A program made the position numbers and the translations under genes. Positions 3,561 to 50,018 of a stretch of 64,000 nucleotides of DNA are shown here, one piece after another. The notes below the pieces were generated by a model. It had not been told where the DNA came from. It worked only from the letters and a program-made list of their open reading frames with translations, and made no database searches. The stretch spans positions 203,856,001 through 203,920,000 of the forward strand of contig NC_091472.1 in NCBI RefSeq assembly GCF_036971445.1, given 5' to 3'. How positions within the stretch are numbered: the stretch's first letter is position 1; every line of letters begins with the position of its first letter. The DNA comes from Narcine bancroftii. Taxonomy: Eukaryota.

Positions 3561-4991
3561 CTAGGGTGTTTCTGCCACTCTGGTCACTTCATCAGGAATG
3601 CTGGTAACTGCCTCGGGAACATCATCTGGTCCCTCAGGTTGAGCATCTCGTATTGGACTTTCAACCACCTCGCTCGATGTCGCTCTGGACTGGTACCTTT
3701 TTAAAGAAGACACATTTTTTTTGTACAGGACTCCAGCCGGAGACTTGACTGTTAACATACTGCCACTTCTGGATACGACAGTGTAGGGTTGATAGTAATA
3801 AGGTGTGTCTAGCTTACCACCATTCTCTTGCCTCACTAGAACATTATCTCCAGGCATGATGTCTGAGTACCTGGCTCCACGTCTCGAATCTGTGTACAGC
3901 TTTGCTGCTCCTTTCTTTTCAGCATCGTGGTCCCTCATCTCCTGGTTGTCCCTGATTTCCTTTATTTCGGGCATTTTTGTGTGGATTTTCCTCCCGAAAA
4001 GCACTTCTGCAGGACTTTTTCCTGTGGTTGCATGAGGCGTTGCCCGATAGACAGCTTCATTAGATAGCAATGCTTGTCGCCAATTTTGTCCTTCTGCGTG
4101 AGCAATCCGTAATCGTTTTTCAATGGACTGATTTTGTCTCTCTACTTCCCCGTTGGCTTGTGGCCATTTTGGAGTTACTTTATGATGGTGGATACCTGTG
4201 GTCCTCATGTATTCAGCAAATGTCTCTGAAATGAACTGTGGACCATTGTCAGAGTATAGCGTAACAGGCAATCCATATCTTGCGAAGATCTCTGCTAATG
4301 CTTGTATTGTTTTTTCAGTGGTCGTTGACCTCATCACAGCATACTCATAGTATCTGCTGTAGTAATTTATCACTACCATGATTGATTCACCAGTCGGTAA
4401 AGGTCCAAGAAAATCAACAGCTACATCGATCCATGGTCCTGTCGGGAGTTGCGTACTCCGGATCGGCTCTGGAGGATTACTCCTACTTGTGATTTGACAC
4501 CCATGGCAGGTTTTGAAGAGTTTCTCTGCGTCTTTATCACAACCTGGCCACCATACTTTACTCCTGAGGTTTTGCTTAGTACCAACAATACCTAGGTGTC
4601 CTTCATGAGCTAAGGATACGATCTTCGGTCTCAACCTCTGCGGTATCACCAATCTACAACCTCTCAATACACACTGTCCGATGCAACAAAGTTTGTCTCT
4701 AATGGGAATGTAAGCCTTGTGAGTACATTTGTCCCATTGTCCACCCTGGATACATTCTCTCACTTCCATAAGTACTGGGTCATGTTCGGACTCTCTCTCG
4801 ACTTCGTTCGTGGTCACAGCTTTCAGTGTCGACTGAATAACTACGAAGCGTACAAAGCTCTCTGCTTCTGTCCCCAATTCTGACTTGGATTGTGGGCATC
4901 CATCCTTCACCAATCTGGACAGCGGATCAGCAATGTTTGCTTTCCCGGCAATATGAACTACTTTATATTTGTAGGGTTGGAGTCGGAGCAC
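3561..4991 (-). pseudogene. Gypsy pol: RNase H end plus integrase (HHCC zinc finger, DDE core)
   Basis: AHEGHLG...CHGC, VDFLGPLP, SDNGPQF, PQANGEVER. Separated from the RT ORF only by an in-frame TGA (ARIE*WVLRLQ), probably CGA>TGA. Confidence 0.9.
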
Positions 4992-4994
4992 CCA

Positions 4995-6245
4995 TCACTC
5001 TATTCTGGCACACAGTTTGGATCTAGCGGCATAGATCACCTCTAATGGCTTATGATCTGTGATGAGTTCAAATTCAATGCCATACAAATATGCATGGAAC
5101 CTATCACAGGCCCATACAAGTCCGAGTGCTTCTTTCTCTGTCTGAGAATATCTCCTTTCCACATCTGACAACGATCTGCTGGTGTAGGCAATGATTCTTG
5201 GTCCTACATCATGCATCTGGACCAACATGGCTCCTAAACCAACAGGACTAGCATCCGCTATGACTTTGGTTGGTGCATCCGGATCATAATATCCAAGAGT
5301 ATCAGCGTCCGTCAGACTTTGCTTCAGCGCTGTGAACGCTTTCTTCTGCTCAGATCCAAAATGGAATAGTACACCTTTCCTGGTTAGTTTCCTTAGTGGT
5401 TCTGCCACTGTAGCAAAGTTAGAGATGAACTTTGCGCAATAATTGACCAATCCCAGGAAACTCCTCACCTCCGTTGCGTTCTGGGGTGCACGTGCATCTG
5501 CAATAGCCTTCACCTTGGCCTCTGCTGGGTTTAGTCCTTCCCGTGTAAGTCTGTGTCCCATGAAGTCCATTTCTGACACACCGAACTGGCACTTGTTTCC
5601 ATTCACGGTAAGGCCTGCCTCCTGTAGTCTAGATAGTACACGCCTCAACCGTCTGTCATGCTCTTCTTTTGTAGGCGCATGAACTATGATGTCGTCAGAA
5701 ATGTTGGCAACTCCAGGAACGCCTTGAATCACTCGATGGATTTCATACTGGTAGATCTCAGAAGCTGCATTAATGCCCAACGATAGTCTCTTGTATCGGT
5801 ACAATCCACAGTGAGTCATAAATTTTGTTACATCTCTAGATTCTGGGTCCAGCTCTAATTGATGATAGCCCCATTTTAAATCAATTTTTGAGAATATTTT
5901 ACTGGTAGTTAACTCCTGAAGTATTTCCTCGACTGTTGGTATAGGGTGTCGTTCTCGAATTATAGCTTCATTGGCCATCCTCATATCAACACACAGTCTT
6001 ATGTTGCCATTTGGTTTGGGCACAATCACTACTGGGCTGACCCATTGTGTCGAATGTTCCACAGGTTCAATAATGTCTTGCGCGATCAACTCTTTAATTT
6101 TGGCTTCAACTCTCCCACGAAGTCCAAACGGAGTTCTGCGCACTGGTTGCGCCTTGGGTTTGACCATTTTGTCCACCGCTAGCTTTAGTTGTCGACCTTT
6201 CAGCTTTCCTACTCCCTGGAAAACTGCGGGGAATTCTTGCTTCAT
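4995..6245 (-). pseudogene. Gypsy pol: reverse transcriptase plus RNase H
   Basis: RLCVDMR, FSKIDLKWGYHQLEL, NISDDII, FLGLVNY, DASPVGLGA, YSQTEKEAL, TDHKPL motifs. Confidence 0.9.
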
Positions 6246-6299
6246 ATCCTCGTATGACTGAACTGAATTGACACGAGCTCCAATATGAAGTATTGCCAG

Positions 6300-7329
6300 G
6301 TCTTGCGCTGCCTGAGTCTACAATGACCTGAACCGTCACACCACCAATTATCACTGGGACCTTCTCATGATGTACATCATTCAATGTAAATTGATAGTAT
6401 CTCGGTCCATCCTGGTTATCATCATCATCGTCACTTTCTGGGACACCGTCTATATGGCGAATAGTGTCTTTCTTTCCAGGATACTTTCCTTTCCCCCAAG
6501 CTTTGCCTTTGGAAGCTGTGTTCTTCCCCTTCTGGTCTGCATTGGACTTGCTTTTGCACTTCTTTGCAAAGTGGTCTTTACCTCCGCACTTTCTGCAAAC
6601 TTTGTCTTTTGCTGGGCAGCATGGGTCTTTTCCAAAATGACCTCTGTTTCCACATCGAAAACACTCCACGTCATGTGTCAACGTATATCTTGGCTGGTTA
6701 TGGCAATGCGAGAGCCTCTTTAACTTGCTGGCTTGAGTTGTCCTTCAGGGTCATGGTATGAAATTGCCCCTCAACAGCCTCTAATGCAGCAGCAATGGCT
6801 AAAGCATCGGTGAGCTTCAACTCAGTCCCTTTTTCCAGCAGACGTCTCCTGAGCTTGTCTGATCTGCAGTGCTGCACGACTTGATCCAATAATTGGTTGT
6901 CCAAATCAGCTGCCATGTAATTGCATCCAACAGCCAGCTGTCGCAATCTCGTCACGTACTGAGCAATCGTTTCTCCATTTTCTTGTTTCGTTCTCCGAAA
7001 CAAATGGCGTTGAAATGTAGCATTCGGTGTCACTACATAGTGTGCATTCAATGCATCGACGGCTTTCTGGTATTCATCCTTCCTTCCTGTATTCAAAAGT
7101 GTCTTAAAAGTTTCCCGAACTGCGGGTCCTGCGGTGAAAAGAAGTAACGCTCTCCTCTGCTCTTTTTGTTCCACCGTACCGCTATCGAGAAATAGGCCAC
7201 GACTGTCGGCGTAGGCTTCAAATTCTTCCAGCCATGCCTTCCACTTCATACTCACAGTGCTTGCATCACCCGTCGGGTCAAAATGAGGAACACCTCGAAG
7301 TGTTAGAAAGTCAGCTTCTGCGCCTGCAT
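6300..7329 (-). pseudogene. Gypsy gag (two Cys/His knuckles) and truncated protease, frameshifted
   Basis: ORF 7255-6698 is gag-like. ORF 6681-6106 has CFRCGNRGH...C and CRKCGGKDHFAKKC, then VIVDSG (protease active site) followed by an internal deletion. Confidence 0.8.
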
Positions 7330-35600: not shown

Positions 35601-38600
35601 TCATCTGGAGACAGAAAGGAGTGTGGGTTAAATCATTACAAAGGCAGCAATAAATAGTCATTGTTTCTTTTTTAAATTCTTCAATGCACTCTTGTCATAA
35701 CATATACTATGACCCAACTAATCAGCTGTTTGTCATACACTTACAATGTACAGATGCAATGCAAATCTTACTTGCTGCAGCTCCCCACATACTCAATCCA
35801 TACCAGTAAAATTAACACACAAGAGAGACAAAACAAATAATGAATATTCAGTTCTATGGTGGTCTTGGAGCTGGTTAGGGTAGGACAGTTCAAGAGCCTG
35901 ATAGAACTCAAAAACCACGAGAGAGGAGCAGAATTATGCCCATCAAACCTGCTCTCCCATGGCTAATGTATTCTTCCTTTCAACCGCATTTTCCTGTCTT
36001 CTCATAACCTTTTTGACACTCTTACTAATCAGAATCTATCAACCTCTGCTCTAAATCTACTCAGTGACGTGGCCTCCACAGTCATCTGTGACAAGGATTC
36101 CACAGATTCACCACCCTCTGCCTGAGGAAATTTCTGCTCATCTCTCTTCTAAAGGTACATCCTTTTTATTCTGAGGCTGTACCCATTCGTCTTAGCCTCC
36201 CTCGCTACTGGAAACATCTACTCCACATCCACCTCTTTCAATATTCGACAGCTATTGAGAAAAGCTGTTCTTGAACCTTGGCTGCCAGACTTCAGGCTTC
36301 TGTACCTTCTGCCAAAGGTGATGGCAGCCTCTGAGGATGTTGGCTTCCTTATTAAAGGCAACTCTTCATGAGGATGTGTTCAATGGGGTCGGGGTGGGGT
36401 TGGAGGAAGGTCAGTATTCTGGATGGACTTAGTTATGTCTGCCACTTACATGCTTTTCGAGTGCATCCATTCAAGATTGCAAAACAAGACTCAATATTTG
36501 TTATAGCCTGGGCAGATTTGTGCACCTGTTTAGTCAATTTATGCATAATAACTGACATCCATTTCAACTCCATTTCCTTGTCTTCATTCACCATCACAGA
36601 ATATTGAACATTCAGTACATTACTGTTTTTAATCTTTTACCTAAAGGAGCAACAGAGGTAGGAATGATAAATTCATTTGTGGACCAAGACCTCAGTGTCC
36701 CCTTATGCAATTGGATTCTTGACTTCTTGTCTAATAAGCTGCATTCAGTGGTAACGACATCTCTTCCACAATCACACTCAATACTGCTGCTCCGGAACCA
36801 TGTCCATTCATTCCCCTTCTTTACTCACTCTACATCCATGACTACCCAGCTAAATACTGTTCCACCTCCAGCTCCAAATTTATTGATAACACCAGAGTCA
36901 CGGGCAGGGCGTCAAACACAGAATGCCAAGTAAAAACACAAAATGTTGGAGAAGCTCAGCAGGTCAAACGGTGTCCTTTATGTAGCAAAGGTAAAGATGC
37001 AGAACCAACTATTTGGGCTTGAGCCCTTCATCAAAGTATGAGAAAAATGCCGGCAAGCGTCAGAACAAAAGAGTGGGGGTGGGGGGGGAGAAGAAAGAAG
37101 ATGTTAGGTGGAGAAAGGGGGGCAGGGACAGCAGTAATGAGGGGGAGGATGGATGGCTGGGTGGGTGGAAAGACAGGAAAAGGGGGAGTGGAAAGAAAAG
37201 GCGAGCCGTTTTAATGGAAAGCAGTCAATGTTAATGCCACCTAGCTGGAGAGTGCCCAGATGGAAAGTAAAGTGGTGTTCCTCCAATCTGCAGGTGGTCT
37301 GACAGAATGCCAAGATCAATAAGACTTCAGGAGAGGGAGCAGAGTCGGTGAAGCTTCCGCAGGTCAGGGGGGAAGCTTGTCGGCGTTCACGTTGGGTGAT
37401 CCAACAATGAAGAATGACGGAGCCTATCTTCATTAAAACCTTCCGGGTGCCAGCCCGGCACGGTTATGCAGTAGAAATATCTCCCTATTTCCCCTGCAGA
37501 GTGGCCTGCGCTACCTCGCAGTACTACGGAATCGCAGGATGTGGAACATTAGTGGTGTTGGAACAGGAGGAAGGTGGAATTAAGCTTTTCAGGAGTTTTG
37601 ACTGGAATGATAGTCTTTTTGATGTTACGTGGAGTGAGAATAATGAACATGTCCTGGTTACTGGTAGCGGTGATGGATCTCTGCAGTTCTGGGACACAGC
37701 TGGCCCTCCTGCACCTCTACAAGTCTTCAAAGAACATACTAAAGAGGTTTACTGTGTTGACTGGAGCCAAAGACGAGGAGAACATCTGGTAGTATCTGGA
37801 TCGTGGGATCAGACTATTAAAATATGGGATCCATTGGTAAAAGATTCAGTTTCTACATTCCAAGGACATGAAAGTGTAATTTACAGCACAATCTGGTCAC
37901 CACATATCCCAGGTTGCTTTGCCTCAGCCTCAGGTGATCATACTCTACGAATCTGGGATATAAAGACAGGAGGATCGAGAATAATAATTCCTGCTCATCA
38001 AGCAGAAATTTTGACTTGTGACTGGAATAAATACGATCAGAATTTGCTTGTTACTGGAGCAGTTGACTGCACTTTACGATGTTGGGACCTGAGAAATATT
38101 CGGCAGCCAGTGCATCAACTCGCTGGCCATTCCTATGCGATACGAAGAGTCAAATTTTCTCCCTTTCATGCAAATATATTAGCATCCTGTTCATATGATT
38201 TCAGTGTCAGGTTTTGGGATATTTCCAAACCAGGCTCTGTGCTTGAAACACTTGAGCACCACACAGAGTTTGTATGTGGGCTTGATTTCAGCATACATAT
38301 CCCTGGTCAGGTTGCTGATTGTTCCTGGGATGAGACTGTGAAGATATATATTCCACCTTGCCTTGCATTTAGTCATTAAATTTGGCATCACTGGACAATT
38401 TAGTACATCATGTTCCACTTCCCAAACTACTGTCTCATGTATTTTGTTTAGTTCATGCCCAGCTTTACTGATTATATTTTGTGAACTTGTAAAGCTCTTC
38501 AGCAGTTTAATATACAGTCACTGGAATGTCTGATTTGATGTTTCTGGTACGTGCTGATTTGCATTTAGAGCAAATGCAACTTTTGTTCTTCATTTCGTTC

Positions 38601-41600
38601 CATGCAATTTGTATTATGAGAACAAGATTGAGAAATCGGAACTGCAAACTTCCAGCTTATTTGTCCACGTTACAGAGTGCTTGAGGAGTTGGTGGATAAG
38701 ATTCACAATTAGAAGTTGACCTATTTATATATTGTATAAATTCATTAGTGGATAGCCATTGCAAAAGTTAGAGATGAGTTGGAAATTTGACTTTCTATAT
38801 TTTGTACTTCATATATTTCACCCTGATTTTTGGGTTAACTAACAGAAAGCATTTTCTTGTTTTTCTGGGACTTCATCCAGACTGTAAAACTAAGTCCATC
38901 CCTTAAAAGGACTATGACTAAATTAATTTTAGATTATGATGGGTAGAAGATGGTGGGGTTCCAAGATCAACTGCTAGAAATTGATTTGGAGGAATTGTTA
39001 TAATCACGGATTTCCATAACTGTTTTGCATTATGATTGAAGGATAAAAATACTGTTAATCTTAACTTGAACACTTGCTGCAACAAGAAATTTTATCTAGA
39101 ATTTTGTCTGCTCTGTTACATTTAAGGATATTGTCATTATGAAGTGTATATAAATCTTAATAACATTCAAAGTTATTCACATTTTCAGACTAACATGCTT
39201 GGTTTTCTTAACATCAGCAACAACCATTTACATAGTGTCTTTAATATGGAAAATAAATTGAAGACTTTCTGAGATGTTTAAAAAAAAAAAGGAGAGGGAG
39301 CAGAGTCCACACCATTAACTGCACTGAAATAGAAAGAGTGGATAGCTTCAAGTTCTTCGGAATAAATATCTACGATGACCTGACCTGGACAAGCACATTG
39401 ATATGGCAGTTAAAAGAGGGCATCAATGCCTCCACTTTAAAAAAAAAAGAAAATTCAACATGTCCCTCAACAACTACTACAGATGCACCATCAAAAGCAT
39501 ATATGCTGGGTGCATCACTGCGTGTTATGGGAGCTGTTCTGCTGAAGATCAGAAGCTACAGAAAGTAATGAATGCAGCTCAGAACACAATGAAAGCTTCC
39601 CTCCCCTCCATGGACTCCATTTACATCTCCTGCAGCCTAGGCAAGGCATTCAACACATTGAAAGGCCCATCATACTGAGAAACAATCTTCAACCTCCCAT
39701 CACAGAGAAGACTCTAGTGCAAACATGGGCACAAGAGGACTTAGCTACTTCACCACGACATCAAGCTCCTGAATGAGCTCCACAGAAGTGCTCTCACGTT
39801 GCCCTTGCTTGGTGCTCATTGATCCTTTTTCTCCCCCTGGCAATCTATGGCCTGCAAACTATACTCTTTGCGTGGCTGTATTAATTATTAAAGATAATGT
39901 GTGTGCTTGCAGAAGATCTCTTCTCACTGTTCAAAGTGTAGCGTGACTAATCAGTTTTATTTGCAAAATATTTTTAAATTCAACTATTTAGAGCACCAAC
40001 TTCCCACCTTTCTGAGTCATGTACAATTGTCATTTAATAATTTATGCCTGGGATGGCTCGTTGATTTATTAAGTCTAGACTCCAAAGAAAAGGCATTCCT
40101 GAAGTCATCAAAATAGATAGATGACTGGCCACTGGATTATTGCTGCTATGCCCTGGCACCAAAATGCGGCAAATTCAAGATTTTATTGTCATGTAATAAA
40201 ATAGAAAATGTGATGGTACACAAAATTTCCTGTCATCCACTGCAAGGAAGACACAGATTTGCTATTAGCAGAAATTGCCCAGCATTCCTGACTGACAGAG
40301 AAAGAGAAGGAAAAGAGCGTTCCCCCTCCCAGAGTCGATGCATGTCCATGGCCTCACCTCCAGCCCAAACCAATGGCAACCAAACTCCAGACGCACATCT
40401 CTGACATGATCGCAATGCCTCCAGCACCCTCTCACATCCCAGTTTCCAAAACCTCTTCAGCCAGTCTCTAACAGGCCACAGCATGGTGTAATCCCTTTAA
40501 CTGCAATCGCCCACGCCACACCTTGAGTCACCAACAGCCCACTGCCTGTGTGTTCTTCAGCTCAGAGCACCTCACTAATCTACTGCTGTGGTCACCATCC
40601 CGTAGATAATCTCCTATGCTTCTCAAACTGGGGGTCGGTCTAAGTTTTCTGGTGGCCTGCGTCAGTCCTCTGCTTCCCCGAAGTCTGCAACCCCTCAAGG
40701 CCGCTGCCAAACGTAAACGCTGCCATCTTGGGCCCAGAGCTCACAGTTGCTAGATTTTTAAATAAACCATCGTGGGCTCCATTTGAAGCCAACACGGACT
40801 AAGCGGTTGGACCTAGCAGGGGGAAAAATAAATAAATCGCTGCATCTCTGCTCCCTGTGGGTCTGCACAAGGTGCAGAGCTACCATTACAGCAGCTCCAG
40901 CAGTGCTGCCATTTTTTATGGAATATCAATCTTCACCCAGCCTCAGCTTCCTCTGGAACTGGATACAATATTGTCAAGACAATTAATGCTGCAAATCTAC
41001 ATGGGCAAGCTCCCCAACTCTTCCTCCACTATATCAACAACTACATCGGGGCTGTCTCAGACACCCGTGATGAGTTTGTCAACTTCATTCACTTTGCTGC
41101 CAACTTGCATCCCGATCTCAAATTTACCTGGTCAATCTCTCCCTTTCTTGATCTCTCTGTCCCCATCTCGGGAGACAAGCTTTCCACTGATGTATTTTGT
41201 AAACCTACCAACTCCCACAACCACACTTCTTCACACCCAGTCCCCTGCAAGGATTTTATTCACCTCACAATTACTCCGTCTCCACCTCATCTGTCCCAAG
41301 ATGAATTTTTCCAGTCCTGATCATCTGAAATGTCCGCCTTCTTCCAGAGCCGTGGCTTCCCCTCCACCACCATCTACTCAGCCCTGACCCGCATCTCCTC
41401 CATTTCCTGGTCATCTGCCTTGGCCCCCACCTGCCCCCAGACACAATAAACACAGGATTCCCCTTGTCCTCACCTACCAGCCCACCAACCACTGCATCCA
41501 TCATATTATCCTCTGTAATTTCCACCACCTGCAACATGATCCCACCACTGGGCTCATCTTCCCCTCTCCACCTTCTGTTGGGATAGATCCATGTCTCCCT

Positions 41601-44600
41601 CATCCACTCATCTCTTTCCATCAATCACCTTTCCCTGTATGAAGTGCCACACTTGTGCCCACACCTCCTCCCTCACCACTATTTGGGCCCCAAACAGTCC
41701 TTTCAAAACTTCCCTTCTGTATCTATGGGAGTGATCCATTGCATCTGGTACTCCCTTTCCAGCCCTCTTTACATCGGAGAAACCCAACGCAGACTGGGAG
41801 ATCGCTTCACTGAGCACCTTCACTCCGTCCACATCAGTGACAAGGATCTCCCAGTGGCCAACCTCTTCAATTCCATGCCTCAACTCCCATGCTGATGTGT
41901 CAGTGCATGGCTTCAAGTTTTGTCCCATCAAGACCACCCATAAATTTGAGGAGCAGCACTTGAAACACTCTATAACGCAGGGGGTCCCCAAATATTTTAG
42001 CCCATCAAGTCTTTGATCTCTCATAGACCCCAAGGCACTTAAAAAAAAACTAAATAATAATTAAGTAGACCTGCAGCTTCCATATGTATTAGTGAGGGAA
42101 AATACATGCCATATGCATGGTGTCTGGGCCTCCCAGCAACAACCCAAACTTTGTTACAACACCCCAATTGCCAAGTAACAAATCTGTAAATTAAGCAAGC
42201 AACTGATTACAATAACAGTAAAAAAAACCTTTGCTTCTGGCCGGGAAGATGCCAAACAGAGATGGGTCCAAGTCTTCAGCATCAGGGGCAGCGACTCCAT
42301 TCTTAACATCAGCTGCAGTGCTGCCCGTATTAGAGAAGTCACCTCGGGCTCCTGGGCAGGAGCAGAGGACCGTTGGGCTCCACAATTCTTTCAACCCAAA
42401 AAGTTCAATCAACCCCCTGGCATTTTTTAACCCTTTGGATAATCCCACTGACCCCCAGGGGTTGATATCGACCACTTTGGAGACCCCTACTCTAACTGGA
42501 TGCCATTAAAATCAGTTTCTGCTTGCCTACTCTCCGCTCTCCCTCCTTTACCGTTTCCTTTGTCTTCTTTCCTCCAGCTTTCCACCCCTTCCCTCTCCAT
42601 TCACATAGCCATGTGCCCTCCCTGTTTACTGGTGTGCCTTTGGGACTGTACTCCTCCCCCACCCCCCTCCATTTCCTTCAGGTGCCTACCTACATTTTTT
42701 CAACCCTTAAAGGGTCAAGCCCAAAACGCTGGTTATGGATCTTTATCTGTGCTATACAGAATACACTGATTGACCTGTTGAGTTTCTCCCGCGTTGTGTT
42801 TTAATTCAACTATGGTGTCTGCAAATTTTCGTGTTTCACCACATCTTCAAGACTGCTTATTTAAAAGCTGTGCTGATACTTGTGAATGCCCCTTTCATAT
42901 TCCACGAGAACACCCCCCCACTCACCCAGTGAGGCAGATAACATATTCCTTCCTCAGCCACAAATTCCAAAACGCCACAATGTGTCATTCGATCAGTTTT
43001 CCTGTTGGTAAGTTTAAAGAGCATTGGGTACGTGATGTTCAGTCGACCTGGAAGCACAAATAAAAAATGGTTTCAGTCCAACCACAAAAGGGAGAACAAT
43101 ATTTTAATCATCATTAAAACCATTCAAAATAGAGCAATCATTCCCAAACTTTCCCCCCCACCCAGCTTTGGCTCCCCTCCCCAGGACTCTGCTCAAAGTT
43201 TATAGGCTCCCTTTCCTGTGAAACAGTCAAGTTTTAGTTTCTTCCGTACTTCTCTCTGACTGACTACATTAAAACAATATTTATGTCACTGTCAACTAAT
43301 TGAAAGAGTTTGAGCATCATTTCACAGACTTTATTTCACATCATACATCATGGAGTGCAAGCAGCGGTCTCCACTGCTCACTGACTTTGAAATCTACTTC
43401 TACAAGCACATATTTAATTATACAGAGAGACAAGCAAGCTGTTAAAGAACATAATGGAATAAATTTGTTGAAAACTACATGGTCTTTTACTACAATTTTT
43501 GTATTAAAATCTTTGTTTTGTCTAAGATGAAGGAGAGCGTGTCAATAATCATTGTTAACATCAACAACCACTGTTGGTGCCCTTGATAACTATTAAGCAC
43601 GTCAGCACTTACTTCCTCAGGAGTTTCTGGAGGTTTGGTATGACATCAGAAACCCTGGTAAATTTTTACAGATACGTGGTGGAAAGTGTGCTGACTGGCT
43701 GCATCACAGTCTGGTATGGGGACAGCAATACCCCCTCCCCCCCCCCAAGCGTAAAACCCTCAAAATTTAGCGGACAGTTCAGGATATCACAGGCAAAACT
43801 CTCCCCACCATCGAAAACATCTACAGGGAACACTGCCGCCGGAGAGCAGCAGCAATCAACAAGGATCCACACCACGCAGCACATGCTCTGTTCTCACTGC
43901 TTCCAGCAGGAAAGAGGTATCGGTGCCACAAAACTTGCACCACCAGGTTCAGGAACAGCAGCTACCCCTCCACCATCAGACTCCTCAACAATAAACTCAA
44001 TCAGGATTTAAAGATCTTTGTGCACTTTCGAGATTTTTTAAAATTCTCACCATATTGCAGTTTGTTTACATTTTTTATTTATTTACATGTATATGCTGTG
44101 TATAGTTTCTTTTGCATTACCAAAGAATGGTAATTCTGCCACGCCCACAGGAAACTGAATCTCATGGTTGAATGTGATGTCATGTATGTACTCTGACAAT
44201 GAATCCAAACTCAAACCTTAAATTCTAAATAATATCTCGCTGAGTAGATGCTGTATTAAAATGGGCTTTTATTGGGCAACTATGTTAGTGTCAAATATCA
44301 AAACTGGAGCCTAAACTTTCTTTCACAGAGTGACAGTGTCAACCTTCATAAAATTTGTTCCATTTATACAAGGTGGAAAAAAACCAAGGCTTTTACTTAA
44401 ATGTGCTGTGGCCCACATGGAGAATGGCTGCAAGAGAGGAATGCTGTGTGACCACCAAACCACACAAACAGTTTCAGAGAAAAAAAATCTAGAAGAACAC
44501 CATCTCAAATTCCACTATGGTATGAACAATGAGTCTTCCAATTTCAGGTCATCCACACTCTATGTCCATTTCCCGTCCCCACCAGTCCACCCAAAGACTT

Positions 44601-47600
44601 GGTCCCTTCACCGTCCCTCTCCTCACACTGCCTTGTAATCTAGACCATCCATTCTCAACCTGATGTGACTCTCTTCGGATTCTGCTCACTTCCTTCCCTG
44701 TGAAGCAGTCAAGTTTTATGCTTTCTTCCATTCTGCTCTCCTACTAACTACATAAAAATTATTTTCTGATTTTAGTCCGTAGGCCTCCTTAAATGTGCTC
44801 CTGGGGTGAGGCAGATGGCCCCAGTTAAGAATTGTTGATCTAGACACAGTTAGTGTAGTGGTTAGCACAATGATGTTACAATGCCAGAGACCCAGGTTCG
44901 GATCCCGCGCTGTCTGAATGTTCTCCCCATGTCTGCGTTGGTTTCCTCCGGGGGTTCTAATTTCCTCCCAGCTTCCAAAATTGTATCGGGGTTGTAGGTC
45001 AATTGGGTGGCATGGGCTCATGGTCCGAAAGGGCCTGTAACTGTGATGTCTAAATTATTATTATTTTTTAAATTTAGACCTACAGCACAGTAACAGGCCT
45101 TTTGACCCATGAGCCAGTGCCCCGTAATTGCACCCAATTGACCTACACACTTAGTATATTTTTTTCCAAAGGTGGGAGGAAACCAGAGCCCCTGGGAAAA
45201 ACCCACGCAGAAACACAGGGTTAATGTATAAACTCCTTACAGACAGCACCAGGACTTGAGCCTCAGACCTGATCGCTGGCGCTGTAAAGGCAGTGTGCGA
45301 ACCACTACGCTAACTGTGCTGCCCTTTAGACTCGTGACTATTCCCAACTTCAATCTATATGTCCATCATCCTCATACCTAATCCTTATAGGTTTCATCCT
45401 TATATGGTTCCATCCATCACCCAGCAGTCTCTGCGACATCTTCTATATTTGGCTACCTTGCTTCTACACCCTCAATCCTGGTGCAAGGTCTCAACACGAA
45501 ATGTCAACCATTCAACCTCCACAGATGCTGCTCGGCTTGCCGAATTAATTTACTGCTTCTCTTTATACTTTTAAATACTCAGCAAGTGAAAGGATGAAAT
45601 GTCACTCATACTATTGCTTGGCAGAAAACTTCATATTCACTTAACCATGGTAGAAGGTTGCACATAAATATTTGGGTACTTACTCAGTTGATCCAGAGCA
45701 GATGGCGGCATTATTACTGCACAAGAAGAAACACCAAACACAATGCAAGTTAGTATAATGGAAAACACAGGGCAGCTTAATTTCAGCTTGAAAACTAGAG
45801 AAACACAAACTTTTTACCGTCCACTACCCCACCCGTGGCAAGCGGTGAAGCAAACTGTTCCTTAACCAGAACATCAGAGAATCCCAATGCATCAATTAAG
45901 CTGTTCAACCATTAACAGTGCCAAGAAGTTGGCAACTTCACACTATTAATGATCAACTGATCTTGATTAGACACCAGGAAAGAATTTTCCAAATGCAAAG
46001 AAAACAAAATTAATGTGCTGAATAAATAACAGGAGCTTATTCACCTTTCAATGAAGGATTTCGTTAACAATTATGAGTATTAACATGATTCAGTATTGAG
46101 AAAGATCACATCATTCCTGATATCTATTTTTCCCTTCCTGAACGTACATAACACAGCACAATATCAAGATCCTCTTCAGCTCTGGGAATCTTCCAATGGA
46201 GCTCAGGTTGCAGGGAAGGAAAGATGCAGAGCCAAATAAATATTGGTAGCCTCAGCTCAGTTCTTGGTGAGTATGGACACAAAACAGTTTGCCAAAAAAC
46301 TACCACCCCCCCCAAAAAAAAAAACACTGACAGATTTCCACAGGACATGGAAGGAGCCCTTTGGGCTTATGAAGACTGTGGGGGCTCACAGAGCAATCAA
46401 CTTCCATCAACTGTCCCCCTCCTACACCAAAATTCATTCGTTCATCTGCACATGAACGGCAATTTACAATGCCAACCCATGTCTTCAGGAGGAAGCTCAA
46501 GAGAACCAAAACACTCCAGACAGTACTGGAAGTTAGAATCAAACTCTTGTCTCTAGAATTTTGATGCAGGCAAATGGTGAAAGTCATGCTTGTCCAGCTG
46601 ATTAGCGATCCGTGTGAGTTGAATTCTGTCATACCTATCCGCCCTTCATGAAGTAGGAAACTTCAGAGTTCCGAAGATCAGAACTTGCTGAAAAGTGGCA
46701 CTTGCTTTCATGTCAATGCAATGTAATGTGGATAAAATTACAAGCACTTACTTTTCCCTCCCTTCTCTACATCCGATCGATCACTGCCTGCAAACATTGA
46801 GACAGAGTAGCAGCGGTACTGTGTTGAGAACCGATTCCGAAATGCTTGCGGAATTGCCTGGTCAAACATATTGAAGGCGAACTATATTGAGAAGACACAA
46901 GAGCATTAGGGAAAAAATCTTTTCTTTTTCCAATCTTTTTTATTAGTTTTAATGTACACAAATTACATAGGTATATATGATTAATAAAATAATATCAAAT
47001 TACAAATATCAAATAACAGTAAATAAGGTACATTATTAAAATGGAAGAAAAGGAGAGAAAGAAAAAAAATTTCTAAACAAGAAATCTTATCAGATCTACT
47101 GACCAAGGGAAGGAGTCCACTAAATAATAATGGGGTATTAAAAAAAATAATTAATCTACAAGTTTTTGAAAATAATTGAGAAAAGAAACCCAAAGTGAAA
47201 GAAAATTAAAATTAATTTCAGTAATAGAACATCTAATTTTTTCTAGAGACAGACATGCCATCACATCCTACAGCCATTGAGTATGAGTGGGAGGGACAGC
47301 ATCTTTCCATCCCTGCAAAATGGCGCTTCTAGCAATGAGGGAAGCAAAAGCCACTATGTGGGACCGTGAAGAAGTCGGTGTTAAATCCATTGGCCCACTC
47401 ACTCCAAAAATAACAATGAAAGGCCTAGGAATTGAGTTAGTATCAAGAACTAATGATAAAGTGCAAAATATTCTTGCCAGAAATTAAAAAGAGAAGGGCA
47501 TAACCAAAACACATGATACCTTCCTCAGTTATATGTTCAGAAGAGATGTTCGTACAAAATTTAGCGAACTGAACTTTGGAAAAGTGGGCCCAATGGAATA

Positions 47601-50018
47601 CTTTAAATTGTATTAATGAATGTCTAGCACAAAGAGAAGATGAATGAAAGGAAAATAATATCTCAGGCAAACTATAACCTGTCACAATGAAGAAATACAT
47701 GTGTAAAATATGTTTAATCCTCCGTGGGGTTGCTCTAGAGATTTGGAATAACGTGTCAAATGGTTTTAAAATGTACACTCTTAGTATTTATATTCATCTT
47801 CTTCTAACATTGAATCATCTTCAGGAAGGGAGAAGTAATCCAGATCCACCTCCCATCTCAGGGAATTCTGAGCTGCCACATGATTAGCATCACAGGCTGA
47901 CAGCACATCAGGTGAAACACAAAAGTCTGCAGATGCTGTGATTATAGTAAAAACACACCAGCATGCTGGAGGAACCCAGCCAGCCTTTTCAGTATCCATA
48001 AAAAGCAAAATATATATTGTCGACATTTCAGGCCAGAGCCCTTCTTCAAGGGTTTGAAGAAGGGCTCAGGCCCAAAACATTGGCAATACATCTTTTGCTT
48101 TTTATGGACGCTGAAGAGACTGGCCGGGTTCCTCCAGCATTTCAGTGTGTTTTTAGTGTCATGTTTCAGGTAACTCATAAGGATAGGGTGCATTCCATGG
48201 TATACGCTCACTTGAAGTTAACATTTAAGGTGAAAACAGGCAATCATTTTAGAACAATTCTGTCACTGAGAGAAGTCGAAACAAAGAGAATAAAATAGGT
48301 GAAATAGGGACAAAATGAGGAGCCTCATTTATCCATACAAAAAAGTGGAAGAAATGTCAAAATTCTCATCCCTAAAAAGCTATCGATGTCAGGTCACCCA
48401 AAATATTTGAGTTGCGTGACTAACTCATTCAAGCAATTTCTAAAATGATGTACATTGACATTCAAGAACAACTATCAACATCAAATCACCACTGACTGAA
48501 CCATCAAGGGAGGAAGGAGTAATTTCAACTTAAAAGGAAATTCCCAAACACAGTCAAGTGCAATACTTCTGCTTGTTAAGATACAAAGTACATGACACAA
48601 GCCTACAATATCTCAGCAATTTACAAATAAACAGTGAAATTGCAGGGAATAATTCCAGCATTAATCTTACTAAGGAAAGCTTAAACATCTACAGAACTAC
48701 AATGATCCTACCCACTGTCCTCAACTCATGTTTTATACCAGAGGAGATCACATTTATCCCACTGGTTTTTCAAACAATACCTCATTAGTGTCCCAAGTCA
48801 TTTAACAGGAACATTATCAGCAGAATTGAATGCTGGGTGACAAACATGATCAGACTTTTGAGATGAATGGCCTTCCAGCTTAATGTACTTGATGCACTCA
48901 AATGCATTCATTTCAAAAAGCTACATCCAACTAGATAACGAACTCTTGGAACTACACTCTGATTCACAAAGGGGATGGAAGAGAGGCTGCCAGAGTTGGA
49001 ATCTGGAGCAAACAAAAACAACCTGGTGAAGGAACTCAACAGATCGAGCAGTATCAGTGGGAGAAAAAGATTCGCTAATGTTTTGGCCTGAAGCTTTAAT
49101 CATTCTATTTCTTCCACAGACGCTACTTGATCTGCTGAGGGCCTCCAGCAAATTGTTCTTTTGCTCCATCTTTTAAGAAAACATTTTGAACCCAAAATGT
49201 AGACAGCATCATAGAATTTTGCCCCAAACTATCGACTTTCATCATTCCTTCGGACCTGTCGTTGGTATTTATGGGGGGGGGGGGGGGGGTTCTCACTGCA
49301 TGGGTCACAGACGGATCTCCATAACAACTCTATCCTGCTTTTACCTGCCCTTGGTCAACCACGATCGATGGAGGCTACAACACAAGAGTACTAAAGGCCC
49401 TTTGGTTTAAAGTGAAAAGATAGGAAGTTAACAGAAGTGGATTTTCAAGAAGCTGGTGACCCCACGTTACAAGTTTAAATGAGGATTTTTAAGAATACTA
49501 ACACAATTGAACGGGTTAAGTATTTTTATGTTAAACATTCTTCCTAATGACATCAAGAGCTATCCCAGAACCTCACTGTTAACTTATCCAAGTCTACTAA
49601 CCAGCCTTCACCACTCTACCTGCAGTCTGGTGAACAGAGGATCTCACCTGTATGTACACTGCAAAAATGTACAGTAGCCAAGGAGTGACACAAATGGTAA
49701 TAAATATCAGGTAACTTCAAGAAAGCAATTAAGTAGTTACCTAGTTGCATGACCACACAAACTCTTTCCACAGTTATCAATGATGGTGGCTTGTCATACT
49801 TCGGCATCAAGTCCCTGCCAGTTCTCTATCACCTCCAAGGCACTGCCAAACCCCAGGCAATATCAGAGGCCTTGTTGAGAACCGTCTAAAATACCAGTTC
49901 AACATCCCCACCGTTCAACAATGATTGTGCAGTCTCAAAGCACAAAATCTCATCCCATTAATTCCCCTCCCCCACTGATCACCAGATCCCACCATGCTCG
50001 CCACGGCTAACTCACCAT
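14586..50018 (-). CDS. UFD1: UFD1, ubiquitin recognition factor in ER-associated degradation 1; complete 12-exon CDS, 924 nt, 307 aa
   Basis: Exons 50016-50018, 46752-46881, 45684-45716, 42926-43047, 35474-35604, 30594-30666, 28702-28770, 25807-25872, 24142-24192, 21000-21088, 19082-19163, 14586-14660. All introns are GT-AG with consistent phases. The translation matches recalled vertebrate UFD1 from MFAFNMFD to [13 protein letters not shown]. Confidence 0.96.
15690..16760 (+). mobile_element. CR1-clade LINE 3' fragments (two tandem 3' ends)
   Basis: [19 protein letters not shown]...[14 protein letters not shown]...[11 protein letters not shown]. The 3' segment recurs at 16450-16760. Confidence 0.85.
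17673..17910 (+). mobile_element. tRNA-derived SINE
   Basis: GGGCGGCACGGTTG...GGTTAGCG head and the family body (GTCTGCGTGGGTTTTCCCC). Confidence 0.65.
18060..18780 (-). mobile_element. CR1 LINE fragments
   Basis: [13 protein letters not shown]...IHLERV on the minus strand, plus CR1 3' UTR-like sequence. Confidence 0.65.
19082..19163 (-). CDS. UFD1: UFD1 exon 11 ([27 protein letters not shown])
   Basis: AG/GTGAGT boundaries, 82 nt. Confidence 0.95.
21000..21088 (-). CDS. UFD1: UFD1 exon 10 ([29 protein letters not shown])
   Basis: SHP-box-like [16 protein letters not shown] boundaries, 89 nt. Confidence 0.95.
22780..23005 (+). mobile_element. tRNA-derived SINE
   Basis: GGCAGCACGGTTAGC...GTTTGAATCCC head plus the family body. 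Confidence 0.65.
24142..24192 (-). CDS. UFD1: UFD1 exon 9 ([17 protein letters not shown])
   Basis: tttctag| and |gtaagt boundaries. EADH...LGFR matches recalled human exon 9. Confidence 0.9.
24420..25400 (+). mobile_element. Penelope-like element fragment (decayed)
   Basis: Remnant of the GIY-YIG endonuclease region (..[16 protein letters not shown]..), similar to 40950-41990. Confidence 0.6.
25807..25872 (-). CDS. UFD1: UFD1 exon 8 ([22 protein letters not shown])
   Basis: AG/GT boundaries, 66 nt. Confidence 0.95.
27400..28600 (+). mobile_element. Rex1/L2-like LINE 3' fragment, interrupted by an AT-rich insertion (~27469-27950)
   Basis: [10 protein letters not shown]... resumes at ~27960 as ..LSWTQH... 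and continues ..[23 protein letters not shown].. Confidence 0.7.
28702..28770 (-). CDS. UFD1: UFD1 exon 7 ([23 protein letters not shown])
   Basis: AG/GTAAGT boundaries, 69 nt, identical to the recalled human peptide. Confidence 0.96.
29200..30320 (+). mobile_element. CR1 LINE, internally deleted (ORF1 zinc-finger/esterase part joined to the 3' end)
   Basis: [29 protein letters not shown] and CCLPG-like remnants, followed by CR1 3' sequence from ~30000. Confidence 0.7.
30594..30666 (-). CDS. UFD1: UFD1 exon 6 ([24 protein letters not shown])
   Basis: 73 nt, preceded by a U12-type branch site, GTGAGT donor. Confidence 0.96.
31391..32390 (-). mobile_element. RTE-clade LINE, 5'-truncated
   Basis: [46 protein letters not shown]-terminal cysteine/histidine motif, GAA-type tail. 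Confidence 0.9.
33009..33176 (-). mobile_element. Short RTE 3' fragment with TSD
   Basis: Nearly identical to 31393-31550. TSD TGCACTTT at 33001-33008 and 33177-33184. Confidence 0.85.
33830..34060 (-). mobile_element. tRNA-derived SINE
   Basis: Reverse complement of the GGCGGCGGGGTTGGCGTAGTGGTTAG...GGGTTCGAATCC head. Confidence 0.7.
35116..35319. mobile_element. Tigger-like MITE (same family as 13985-14187)
   Basis: TA|CAGTAAACCC.CTGGTATC ... GATAACAGGGATTTTACT. Confidence 0.7.
35474..35604 (-). CDS. UFD1: UFD1 exon 5 ([43 protein letters not shown])
   Basis: 131 nt, ctccag| acceptor, U12 donor. Confidence 0.96.
37347..39290 (+). other. PEX7: PEX7 processed retrocopy (whole insert: 5' UTR, CDS, ~0.9-kb 3' UTR, poly(A))
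   Basis: Bounded by the 17-bp direct repeat GGAGAGGGAGCAGAGTC (37330-37346, 39291-39307). AATAAA at 39252-39257 and an A tail at 39280-39290. Confidence 0.93.
37414..38379 (+). CDS. PEX7: Peroxisomal biogenesis factor 7 (PTS2 receptor, WD40), intact intronless ORF, 321 aa
   Basis: [76 protein letters not shown] match recalled vertebrate PEX7 end to end. No stops or frameshifts. Confidence 0.95.
40950..42850 (+). mobile_element. Penelope-like element (RT C-terminus plus GIY-YIG), decayed, with a nested MITE
   Basis: [18 protein letters not shown]...[10 protein letters not shown]; [21 protein letters not shown]...[10 protein letters not shown]. Confidence 0.8.
41978..42489. mobile_element. 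hAT-type MITE nested in the Penelope element
   Basis: CAGGGGGTCCCCAAA / TTTGGAGACCCCTA termini. Flanks CTATAACG / CTCTAACT form a degenerate 8-bp TSD. Confidence 0.6.
42926..43047 (-). CDS. UFD1: UFD1 exon 4 ([40 protein letters not shown])
   Basis: 122 nt, ttccag| and |gtgagt boundaries. Confidence 0.96.
43600..44205 (+). mobile_element. Rex1/L2-like LINE 3' fragment
   Basis: [37 protein letters not shown]; homologous to 27960-28600. Confidence 0.8.
44845..45325. mobile_element. Two tRNA-derived SINEs in inverted, tail-to-tail arrangement
   Basis: Plus-strand copy at 44845-45052 and minus-strand copy at 45070-45325. Confidence 0.7.
45684..45716 (-). CDS. UFD1: UFD1 exon 3 ([11 protein letters not shown])
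   Basis: 33 nt, tgcag| and |gtaagt boundaries. Confidence 0.95.
46752..46881 (-). CDS. UFD1: UFD1 exon 2 ([43 protein letters not shown])
   Basis: 130 nt, tag| and |gtaagt boundaries. Confidence 0.96.
46918..47680 (-). mobile_element. L1 LINE 3' fragment (ORF2 C-terminal region plus A-rich tail)
   Basis: [20 protein letters not shown] is typical of L1 ORF2 before the CCHC domain. The T-rich end at ~46920 is the tail on the minus strand. Confidence 0.7.
47948..48155. repeat. ~100-bp-arm inverted repeat (fold-back) made of Penelope-type terminal sequence
   Basis: Arms TAAAAACAC...GAGCCCTTCTTCAA and TTGAAGAAGGGCTC...GTGTTTTTA flank a 4-nt loop at 48050-48053. Confidence 0.85.
50016..50018 (-). 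CDS. UFD1: UFD1 exon 1 coding part (ATG only)
   Basis: gcaaccATG|gtgagt in a CpG-rich region, in phase with exon 2 (TTC...). Confidence 0.85.

Follow-up and report, generated by a model that had tools for sequence, protein, structure and literature searches.

Functional or replacement (orphan) retrogenes are reportedly exemplified by PGK2 and GLUD2, and L1-mobilised processed pseudogenes form the other closely comparable class in vertebrates. For cartilaginous fishes, a retrocopy survey gives 14,081 retrocopies, of which 95.7% are species-specific and 15.7% carry an ORF. What is accessible of the literature on PEX7 retrocopies and processed pseudogenes contains nothing on the present locus. 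Here, we describe a copy of PEX7, a gene of peroxisomal import, in an electric ray, which we read, with a probability of about 0.85, as a young full-length processed copy of a spliced PEX7 mRNA, likely pasted by L1 and most likely a silent passenger.

Structure of the copy and its host intron

The window (the whole 64-kb stretch of DNA analysed) contains a stop-free, intronless PEX7 ORF of 321 aa on the + strand. The features of the locus are as follows.

35605–42925, − strand: UFD1 intron 4, the host intron, antisense to the copy
36681–36930, + strand: upstream piece of the host repeat, old, 69–83% identical to its siblings, likely a LINE
36931–37301, − strand: older second insertion, 80–83% identical to its siblings, flanked by a 13-bp duplication (36918–36930 and 37302–37314)
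37330–37346, + strand: left target-site duplication (TSD), extending to 18 bp with the shared A at 37329
37347, + strand: non-templated G, likely cap-derived, from alignment to the parent; the parent base is T and the target base C
37348–37413, + strand: 5′ UTR, equal to parent exon 1 by alignment; its first base is likely the parent transcription start
37407–37436, + strand: out-of-frame uORF of 9 codons overlapping the PEX7 start, common to copy and parent
37414–38379, + strand: intronless PEX7 CDS, 321 aa, from the ORF and the parent alignment
After 37537, 37595, 37746, 37824, 37933, 38040, 38154, 38210 and 38310, + strand: parent exon joints in the copy CDS
38380–39277, + strand: 3′ UTR, with 5 differences from the parent
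39252–39257, + strand: AATAAA polyadenylation signal
39278–39290, + strand: TT, mismatching the parent, then the A11 tail (39280–39290)
39291–39307, + strand: right TSD
39291–39675, + strand: downstream piece of the host repeat, 71–80% identical to its siblings

The sequence-only reading had listed a 321-aa intronless PEX7 ORF, a 67-nt 5′ UTR, a 3′ UTR of about 900 nt, an AATAAA 22 nt ahead of an 11-A tail and a perfect 17-bp TSD, and all of these were recovered. The 5′ leader is indeed 67 nt long (37347–37413), with 66 nt matching the parent and a mismatching first G. The two TSD 17-mers are identical, and scanning both strands of the window revealed no further occurrence. The extra G, the extra TT and the second insertion with its 13-bp duplication just upstream had been missed earlier. 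The second insertion may be Penelope-like.

UFD1 is encoded on the minus strand, with a candidate exon 1 ATG at 50018, exon 2 from 46881 and exon 3 near 45711. Exon 4 ends at 42926 and exon 5 starts at 35604; these bracket the insert, and the PEX7 copy therefore lies in intron 4, as had been proposed. Since this antisense position means that the copy would be transcribed in antisense with every UFD1 transcription, the UFD1 pre-mRNA might yield antisense PEX7 RNA, or UFD1 splicing or transcription might be disturbed. Two ATTAAA motifs occur on the UFD1 strand of the insert (38506 and 39240), but AATAAA is absent from that strand of the insert, and the named UFD1 protein has exon 4 joined normally to exon 5. 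Spliced-out introns are also mostly short-lived, and such a cis or antisense effect is considered very improbable.

The sequences flanking the insert belong to a single repeat that the insert interrupts: at 5 of 11 sibling loci, both flanks align in register around one 17-mer. The splitting of a decayed repeat claimed by the sequence-only reading was thus confirmed, and its naming as a LINE can be held only tentatively, with sub-cut-off Pfam matches to PF09004 in 2 of 7 sibling pieces and a Pfam match in none of the 3 flank pieces of the window. Putative reverse transcriptase (RT)-like motifs were recognised in the host repeat. The upstream repeat may contain a hammerhead-like motif, but an Rfam search of 36500–40000 returned no match.

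The encoded protein is 99% identical to the named PEX7 P0241 and matches 17 other chondrichthyan PEX7 proteins over the full length at 81–91% identity. It contains WD40 repeats, and comparison with the solved PTS2 receptor (PDB 3w15 chain A, a WD40 propeller) gave an E value of 5e-52. The copy is therefore predicted to encode a full-length WD40 propeller closest to PEX7. Its protein is recorded in NCBI and UniRef, which reflects a gene call and not expression.

Parent gene and divergence

The intron-containing parent that the sequence-only reading had proposed to look for was found at G000:C15:202229787-202302003. It has 10 exons, GT-AG boundaries at 9/9 introns and an open CDS, and it lies on a different chromosome (C15) from the copy (C9). 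All nine introns are exactly absent from the copy, and 9/9 joints fall at the parent GT-AG boundaries. The A11 tail behind the poly(A) signal is absent from the parent DNA. A third PEX7 locus was not found by protein and DNA searches of the genome. The parent upstream region is CpG-rich, and none of the parent upstream sequence is present in the copy.

Copy and parent differ at 9 of 1,930 nt (99.5% identical; 0.47% different), with 4 differences in 966 coding and 5 in 964 non-coding positions, all of the latter in the 3′ UTR (CDS versus UTR, p = 0.75). The coding changes comprise 2 synonymous and 2 non-synonymous differences (ratio, 0.37; p = 0.30), and with four coding differences no test of selection on the copy was significant. 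At the protein level, the copy has Leu58 and Ala301 where the parent has Ile and Val, and there is no further amino-acid difference. The neutral chance of an open ORF is 0.83–0.89 with 2 changes on the copy branch and 0.67–0.77 with 4.5. With the mutation rate of the epaulette shark (7e-10 per base per generation), the copy could be 0.2–6 million generations old. The earlier claim of a very young processed copy holds.

Among the matches listed for the outgroup run X10, the parent letter was lacking at 7 of the 9 differing sites, both amino-acid changes included (7 versus 2, p = 0.18). By this comparison, the older sequence would be that of the copy and the changed one that of the parent, in which case the copy itself may not have acquired any non-synonymous change. 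At two of the seven sites apparently derived in the parent, however, the parent has a CpG, where copy and outgroup may have decayed separately, and X10 may hold a third letter beyond the matches listed.

These observations bear on the idea that the copy is a nascent functional retrogene, driven by a borrowed promoter in some tissue such as the germ line or embryo and held by selection for PEX7 dose or for an older form of the protein. The whole ORF, both UTRs and the poly(A) signal are in place, the possible age is as given above, and X10 suggests that both amino-acid differences arose in the parent line, with Ala301 being common to 14 of the 17 other chondrichthyans. However, the copy variants at both 58 and 301 also occur in relatives and appear to be tolerated, the selection tests were non-significant, and the CpG sites and a hidden X10 letter weaken the polarity. 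The CpG-rich upstream region of the parent was also left uncopied, and old repeats precede the copy.

Sequencing-run evidence

Eight of the 15 available runs were examined (X1 and X4–X10), and the RNA nature of X5–X8 and X10 is presumed, as the runs have no RNA record. In X6, X7 and X8, which come from one study, spliced contigs carried the parent letter at 9/9 differing sites, although contigs hide minor or tissue-restricted alleles and their strand is unreadable. Because these contigs cross exon joints, they derive from parent RNA. X5 had almost no coverage over the CDS. No RNA-type contig covers either joint of the copy, which has no evidential weight since a filter removes records. Three short contigs matching the copy were found in X9 (organism B; depth, 2.4–2.8). 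They agree with the copy at 38516, 38527 and 38859 and show a single gap of 2 letters, but the depth is too low to separate the copy, a parent allele and carry-over.

Parent PEX7 is intact, spliced and expressed. The suggestion that the copy replaced a lost or dead parent as the PTS2 receptor gene is thus refuted by the ten-exon gene on C15, and nothing was found in its favour. The other earlier proposal, a retained and transcribed retrogene, gained no support from the contigs of X6–X8, which count against a nascent functional retrogene as well; we regard the latter as unlikely. Slightly less likely still is its strongest form, in which the copy would be expressed in an unsampled tissue and under purifying selection, keeping the ancestral PEX7 protein inside and against the essential UFD1, with the two amino-acid changes having been acquired by parent PEX7. 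Conversely, the sequence-only reading had expected a recent passenger to have a parent near-identical across CDS and UTR and no copy-specific transcripts. The near-identity was found, and the RNA-type contigs had only parent letters, with minor transcripts hidden from them. Given the near-identity to an intact, expressed parent, the copy most likely represents a recent passenger of the ordinary kind.

An assembly artefact or cDNA contamination was also considered, and the DNA runs X1 and X4 do come from one sample, possibly the assembled one. However, a read-derived contig (39248–39580) spans the 3′ joint at a depth of 4.8, with 4.7–5.0 in the flanks and a depth of 8 in X4, and contigs common to copy and parent stop exactly at 37348 and 39277. 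A duplication, nine letters of its own and a split repeat are impossible from a cDNA mis-join, making this explanation highly improbable. The depths of the contigs, as a rough guide, agree with sample S1 carrying the insertion on both homologues, which would also suit a functional retrogene. No joint skipping the insert (empty site) was present among the matches listed for X4, X6, X7 and X10. A joint from 36787 to 39290 was rejected as an empty allele, having a 23-letter side that fits sibling repeats.

Insertion mechanism and comparison with known retrocopies

PF02994 of L1 was matched by 72 of 150 scored candidates in this genome, and of 150 RT matches scored, 11 fell within stop-free frames of at least 1,256 codons. 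The L1 elements are about 6 kb long, with ORF1 and ORF2 (RT plus zinc-knuckle). Twenty sampled L1 copies differed pairwise by 0.7–3.6%, exceeding the copy–parent difference, and none of the 20 had a whole ORF2. Duplications of 9–16 bp flanked 16/16 measurable L1 copies, with three leading purines in 15/16. The PEX7 duplication is likewise purine-led and, at 17–18 bp, slightly longer; this comparison covers the resident L1 family alone among the LINEs of this genome. L1 is the likely agent because a young genomic L1 family makes similar duplications, in line with the L1-type retroposition proposed earlier. The retrocopy survey attributes retroduplication outside mammals to CR1 or Tx1 elements, and the agent is therefore unproven. 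Other intronless gene pieces in this genome include RPS3A at 2 loci and RPS8 at 1 locus.

In the proposed course of events, the L1 endonuclease would nick the target at a pyrimidine/purine step, and reverse transcription of PEX7 mRNA would be primed from its poly(A) tail. On reaching the mRNA cap, the enzyme would add one G, and second-strand cleavage 17–18 bp away would create the duplication. The copy, having no promoter of its own, would be transcribed barely or never, and its ORF would be open because merely 2–4 or so substitutions have occurred on it so far. An extra non-templated 5′ G is a known mark of capped full-length mRNA (PMC11702581); a whole-word search of PMC7353768 found no passage on it.

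With functional or replacement retrogenes, the PEX7 copy shares an intact ORF with UTRs. It differs in that no own transcript, selection signal or recruited promoter was seen and the parent is alive. Neither PEX7 locus fits the candidate X of this species, described as a 103-Mb chromosome, and there is no out-of-X pattern; with a parent contig of 255 Mb and a C9 of >318 Mb, out-of-X compensation was ruled out. The locus would carry greater weight only if the copy proved both expressed and selected.

The likeness to L1-mobilised processed pseudogenes of vertebrates extends to exact intron loss, a poly(A) tail after the signal, a long TSD, a pyrimidine/purine nick, an extra 5′ G, a new chromosome and the lack of the parent promoter. 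The copy differs in being found in a ray rather than a mammal and in being full length (1.93 kb, compared with retrocopy lineage medians of 375–674 bp) and open. Its nick site is G-rich, in contrast to the TT/AAAA of human L1. The PEX7 copy is thus most likely a textbook young retrocopy. It suggests where transcription of parent PEX7 starts and where its transcript is polyadenylated, could be used as a presence/absence marker across Narcine populations, and calls for caution in annotation and read mapping, as a 99.5% identical copy may pass as a second PEX7 gene. It provides a clean example of rays producing mammal-style full-length retrocopies, with junction marks like those of the resident young L1.

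PEX7 retrocopy and its parent gene

A scan of the window identified an uninterrupted ORF of 321 codons within UFD1, a minus-strand gene whose exon 4 ends at 42926 and whose exon 5 begins at 35604; the intronless PEX7 unit is therefore antisense in intron 4. This placement, the duplication and the polyadenylation features described in the sequence-only reading were all located:

37330-37346 and 39291-39307: target-site duplication, a perfect 17-mer (18 bp counting a shared A)
37414-38379, plus strand: PEX7 ORF
39252: AATAAA, 22 nt upstream of an 11-A run
36918-37314: older second insertion including a perfect 13-bp duplication, inside the same host repeat, 29 bases upstream of the left PEX7 duplication

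The ORF protein contains WD40 repeats, matches the solved PTS2 receptor 3w15 and has PEX7 proteins as its closest relatives, the closest named one being PEX7 of the electric ray Narcine bancroftii. An out-of-frame ATG 7 bases ahead of the PEX7 start, present in the copy and in parent exon 1, opens a 9-codon frame (37407-37436) that could dampen PEX7 translation.

Searching the ray's genome assembly (G000) at both protein and DNA level revealed one other PEX7 locus, on contig C15. This is the intron-containing parent that had been sought: its ten exons spread over 72 kb, all nine introns are GT-AG and the CDS is open. Distant WD40 matches at G000:C9:105293728-105294162 (285-codon open frame) and C24:15717908-15718246 (225-codon) may represent further intronless WD40 genes or copies. 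The copy differs from the parent at 9 of 1,930 bases with zero gaps: two synonymous changes, Leu/Ile 58, Ala/Val 301 and five changes in the 3' UTR. In an alignment of 19 PEX7 proteins selected out of 32 listed (isoforms and partial records excluded), the 17 other chondrichthyans had Ala 14 times and Val three times at position 301, and position 58 was Ile in four, Leu in three and Phe in one of eight batoid rows; both residue pairs thus differ from one relative to another. With 99.5% identity to a living ten-exon gene, no introns, a tail and a 17-18-bp duplication, the suggestion of a very young processed copy was borne out, and we conclude that this is a genuine, young and unusually complete retrocopy.

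Insertion site and junctions

The copy-parent match starts at 37348, and the preceding base is G in the copy, T in the parent and C in the target. According to the available text of PMC11702581, full-length L1 insertions typically have an additional G at their 5' junctions that derives from the mRNA cap. Because the match starts in a CpG-rich stretch of the parent (observed/expected 0.9-1.0), it likely marks a parent transcription start. On the 3' side, the match extends to 39277, and between it and the tail stand two T, which would be explicable by a 3-base indel relative to the parent or by tail decay.

The flanking 17-mer had no further occurrence within the 64-kb window. At five of 11 other loci of the host repeat, the left and right flanks are in register and the 17-mer is present once, the pattern of an empty site. 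The earlier claim of a split, decayed LINE thus held for the split, whereas the LINE identity is tentative: PF09004 fell below its Pfam cut-off in two of seven sibling pieces, none of three window pieces matched Pfam, and a related window piece aligns at E 3e-7. The upstream insertion belongs to an abundant repeat and is 371 bp long (7,931 candidates; 80-83% identity to the best 39 others); it is an element in which an Rfam search found nothing and whose ends we take to be Penelope-like. Identity to relatives (71-80% for the host repeat, against 80-83% and 99.5%) gives the order host repeat, upstream element, PEX7 copy. Elsewhere in the window, minus-strand 3561-7249 holds gag-, RT/RNase H- and integrase-like ORFs of an LTR retrotransposon with long open frames, presumably Gypsy-type.

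Expression, selection and age

Fifteen sequencing runs were listed and eight compared, all as contigs. In DNA run X1, a contig with depth 4.8 spans the 3' joint (4.7-5.0 in the flanks, 10-13 in parts shared by copy and parent), and parent letters account for 5.6 of 10.6 and 6.0 of 11 depth at two sites. Run X4, from the same sample, S1, had depth 8 at the joint and 14-18 across shared parts. These depths, a rough guide, are consistent with the insertion being real and present on both homologues of S1, which may be the assembled animal.

The earlier reading had also considered a retained retrogene with its own transcripts. Spliced contigs from three runs of one study, presumed RNA (X8, X6 and X7), carried the parent letter at 9/9 sites. 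Expression of the parent, as the dominant transcript, follows from this, a minor transcript of the copy being possible at this contig level. dN/dS between copy and parent was 0.37, from two and two changes (p = 0.30), and CDS and non-coding divergence were similar (p = 0.75). The chance of an intact ORF in a neutral copy was 0.67-0.89, given 2-4.5 changes on the copy branch and an assumed indel ratio of 0.1-0.2. On the other side, outgroup run X10 (97 differences across about 1,836 bases) has, among the rows listed, the parent letter at two of nine sites and lacks it at seven, including both amino-acid changes. This polarity suggests that the copy retains older sequence, counter to the passenger reading, but the split of seven against two has p = 0.18, and CpG sites of the parent make up two of the seven. 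The parent (C15 exons 2, 9 and 10) seems to have 5-7 letters absent from the outgroup, both amino-acid changes included, versus 2-4 in the copy. Overall, the copy is most likely a passenger, with a probability of about 85%, and a nascent retrogene is possible but improbable. Copy and parent are separated by about 9% of the divergence to X10, and the epaulette shark rate reported in the available part of PMC10587355, borrowed from another order, gives an age of 0.2-6 million generations.

Candidate agent and comparison with known retrocopies

The same genome contains two additional intronless RPS3A loci and one additional RPS8 piece. A frameshifted intronless RPS3A copy (G000:C8:208112154-208112741) is located some 11 kb upstream of the likely parent's exons, strangely close by for a retrocopy. 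For cartilaginous fishes, the available text of one survey gives a total of 14,081 retrocopies, of which 95.7% are species-specific and 15.7% have an ORF (bioRxiv 10.64898/2026.06.26.734816), and that of a second gives a comparable picture (10.64898/2026.06.24.732306). The copy's protein already has records in NCBI and UniRef. A literature search for PEX7 retrocopies or processed pseudogenes found, among the records listed, nothing on this locus; the supplements of the two surveys may list it. As far as the available text goes, the 103-Mb candidate X of Narcine bancroftii (10.1101/2025.02.26.637739; PMC12265721) fits neither the copy locus nor the parent locus.

The genome holds a young L1 family: PF02994 was matched by 72 of 150 scored candidates, and stop-free frames of at least 1,256 codons contain 11 of the 150 scored RT matches. 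Twenty loci chosen for open ORF1 (L042-L061) are ~6-kb elements with RT and zinc-knuckle domains, 0.7-3.6% apart, none with a whole ORF2. They show an ~800-bp ORF1-ORF2 gap, a GAAA-type tail rather than pure poly(A) and a variable extra 5' G. Duplications were exact in all 16 loci with a placeable 3' end (9-16 bp, median 13.5; four loci dropped), beginning with three purines in 15 and preceded by a pyrimidine in 13, the latter partly forced by the purine-rich tail. L1 is likely the agent that inserted the PEX7 copy, although the first survey, in its available text, names CR1 and Tx1 as retroduplication drivers outside mammals. In sequence (C then AGG), the PEX7 insertion site resembles those of the resident L1 family; its 17-18-bp duplication is slightly longer than their 9-16 bp.
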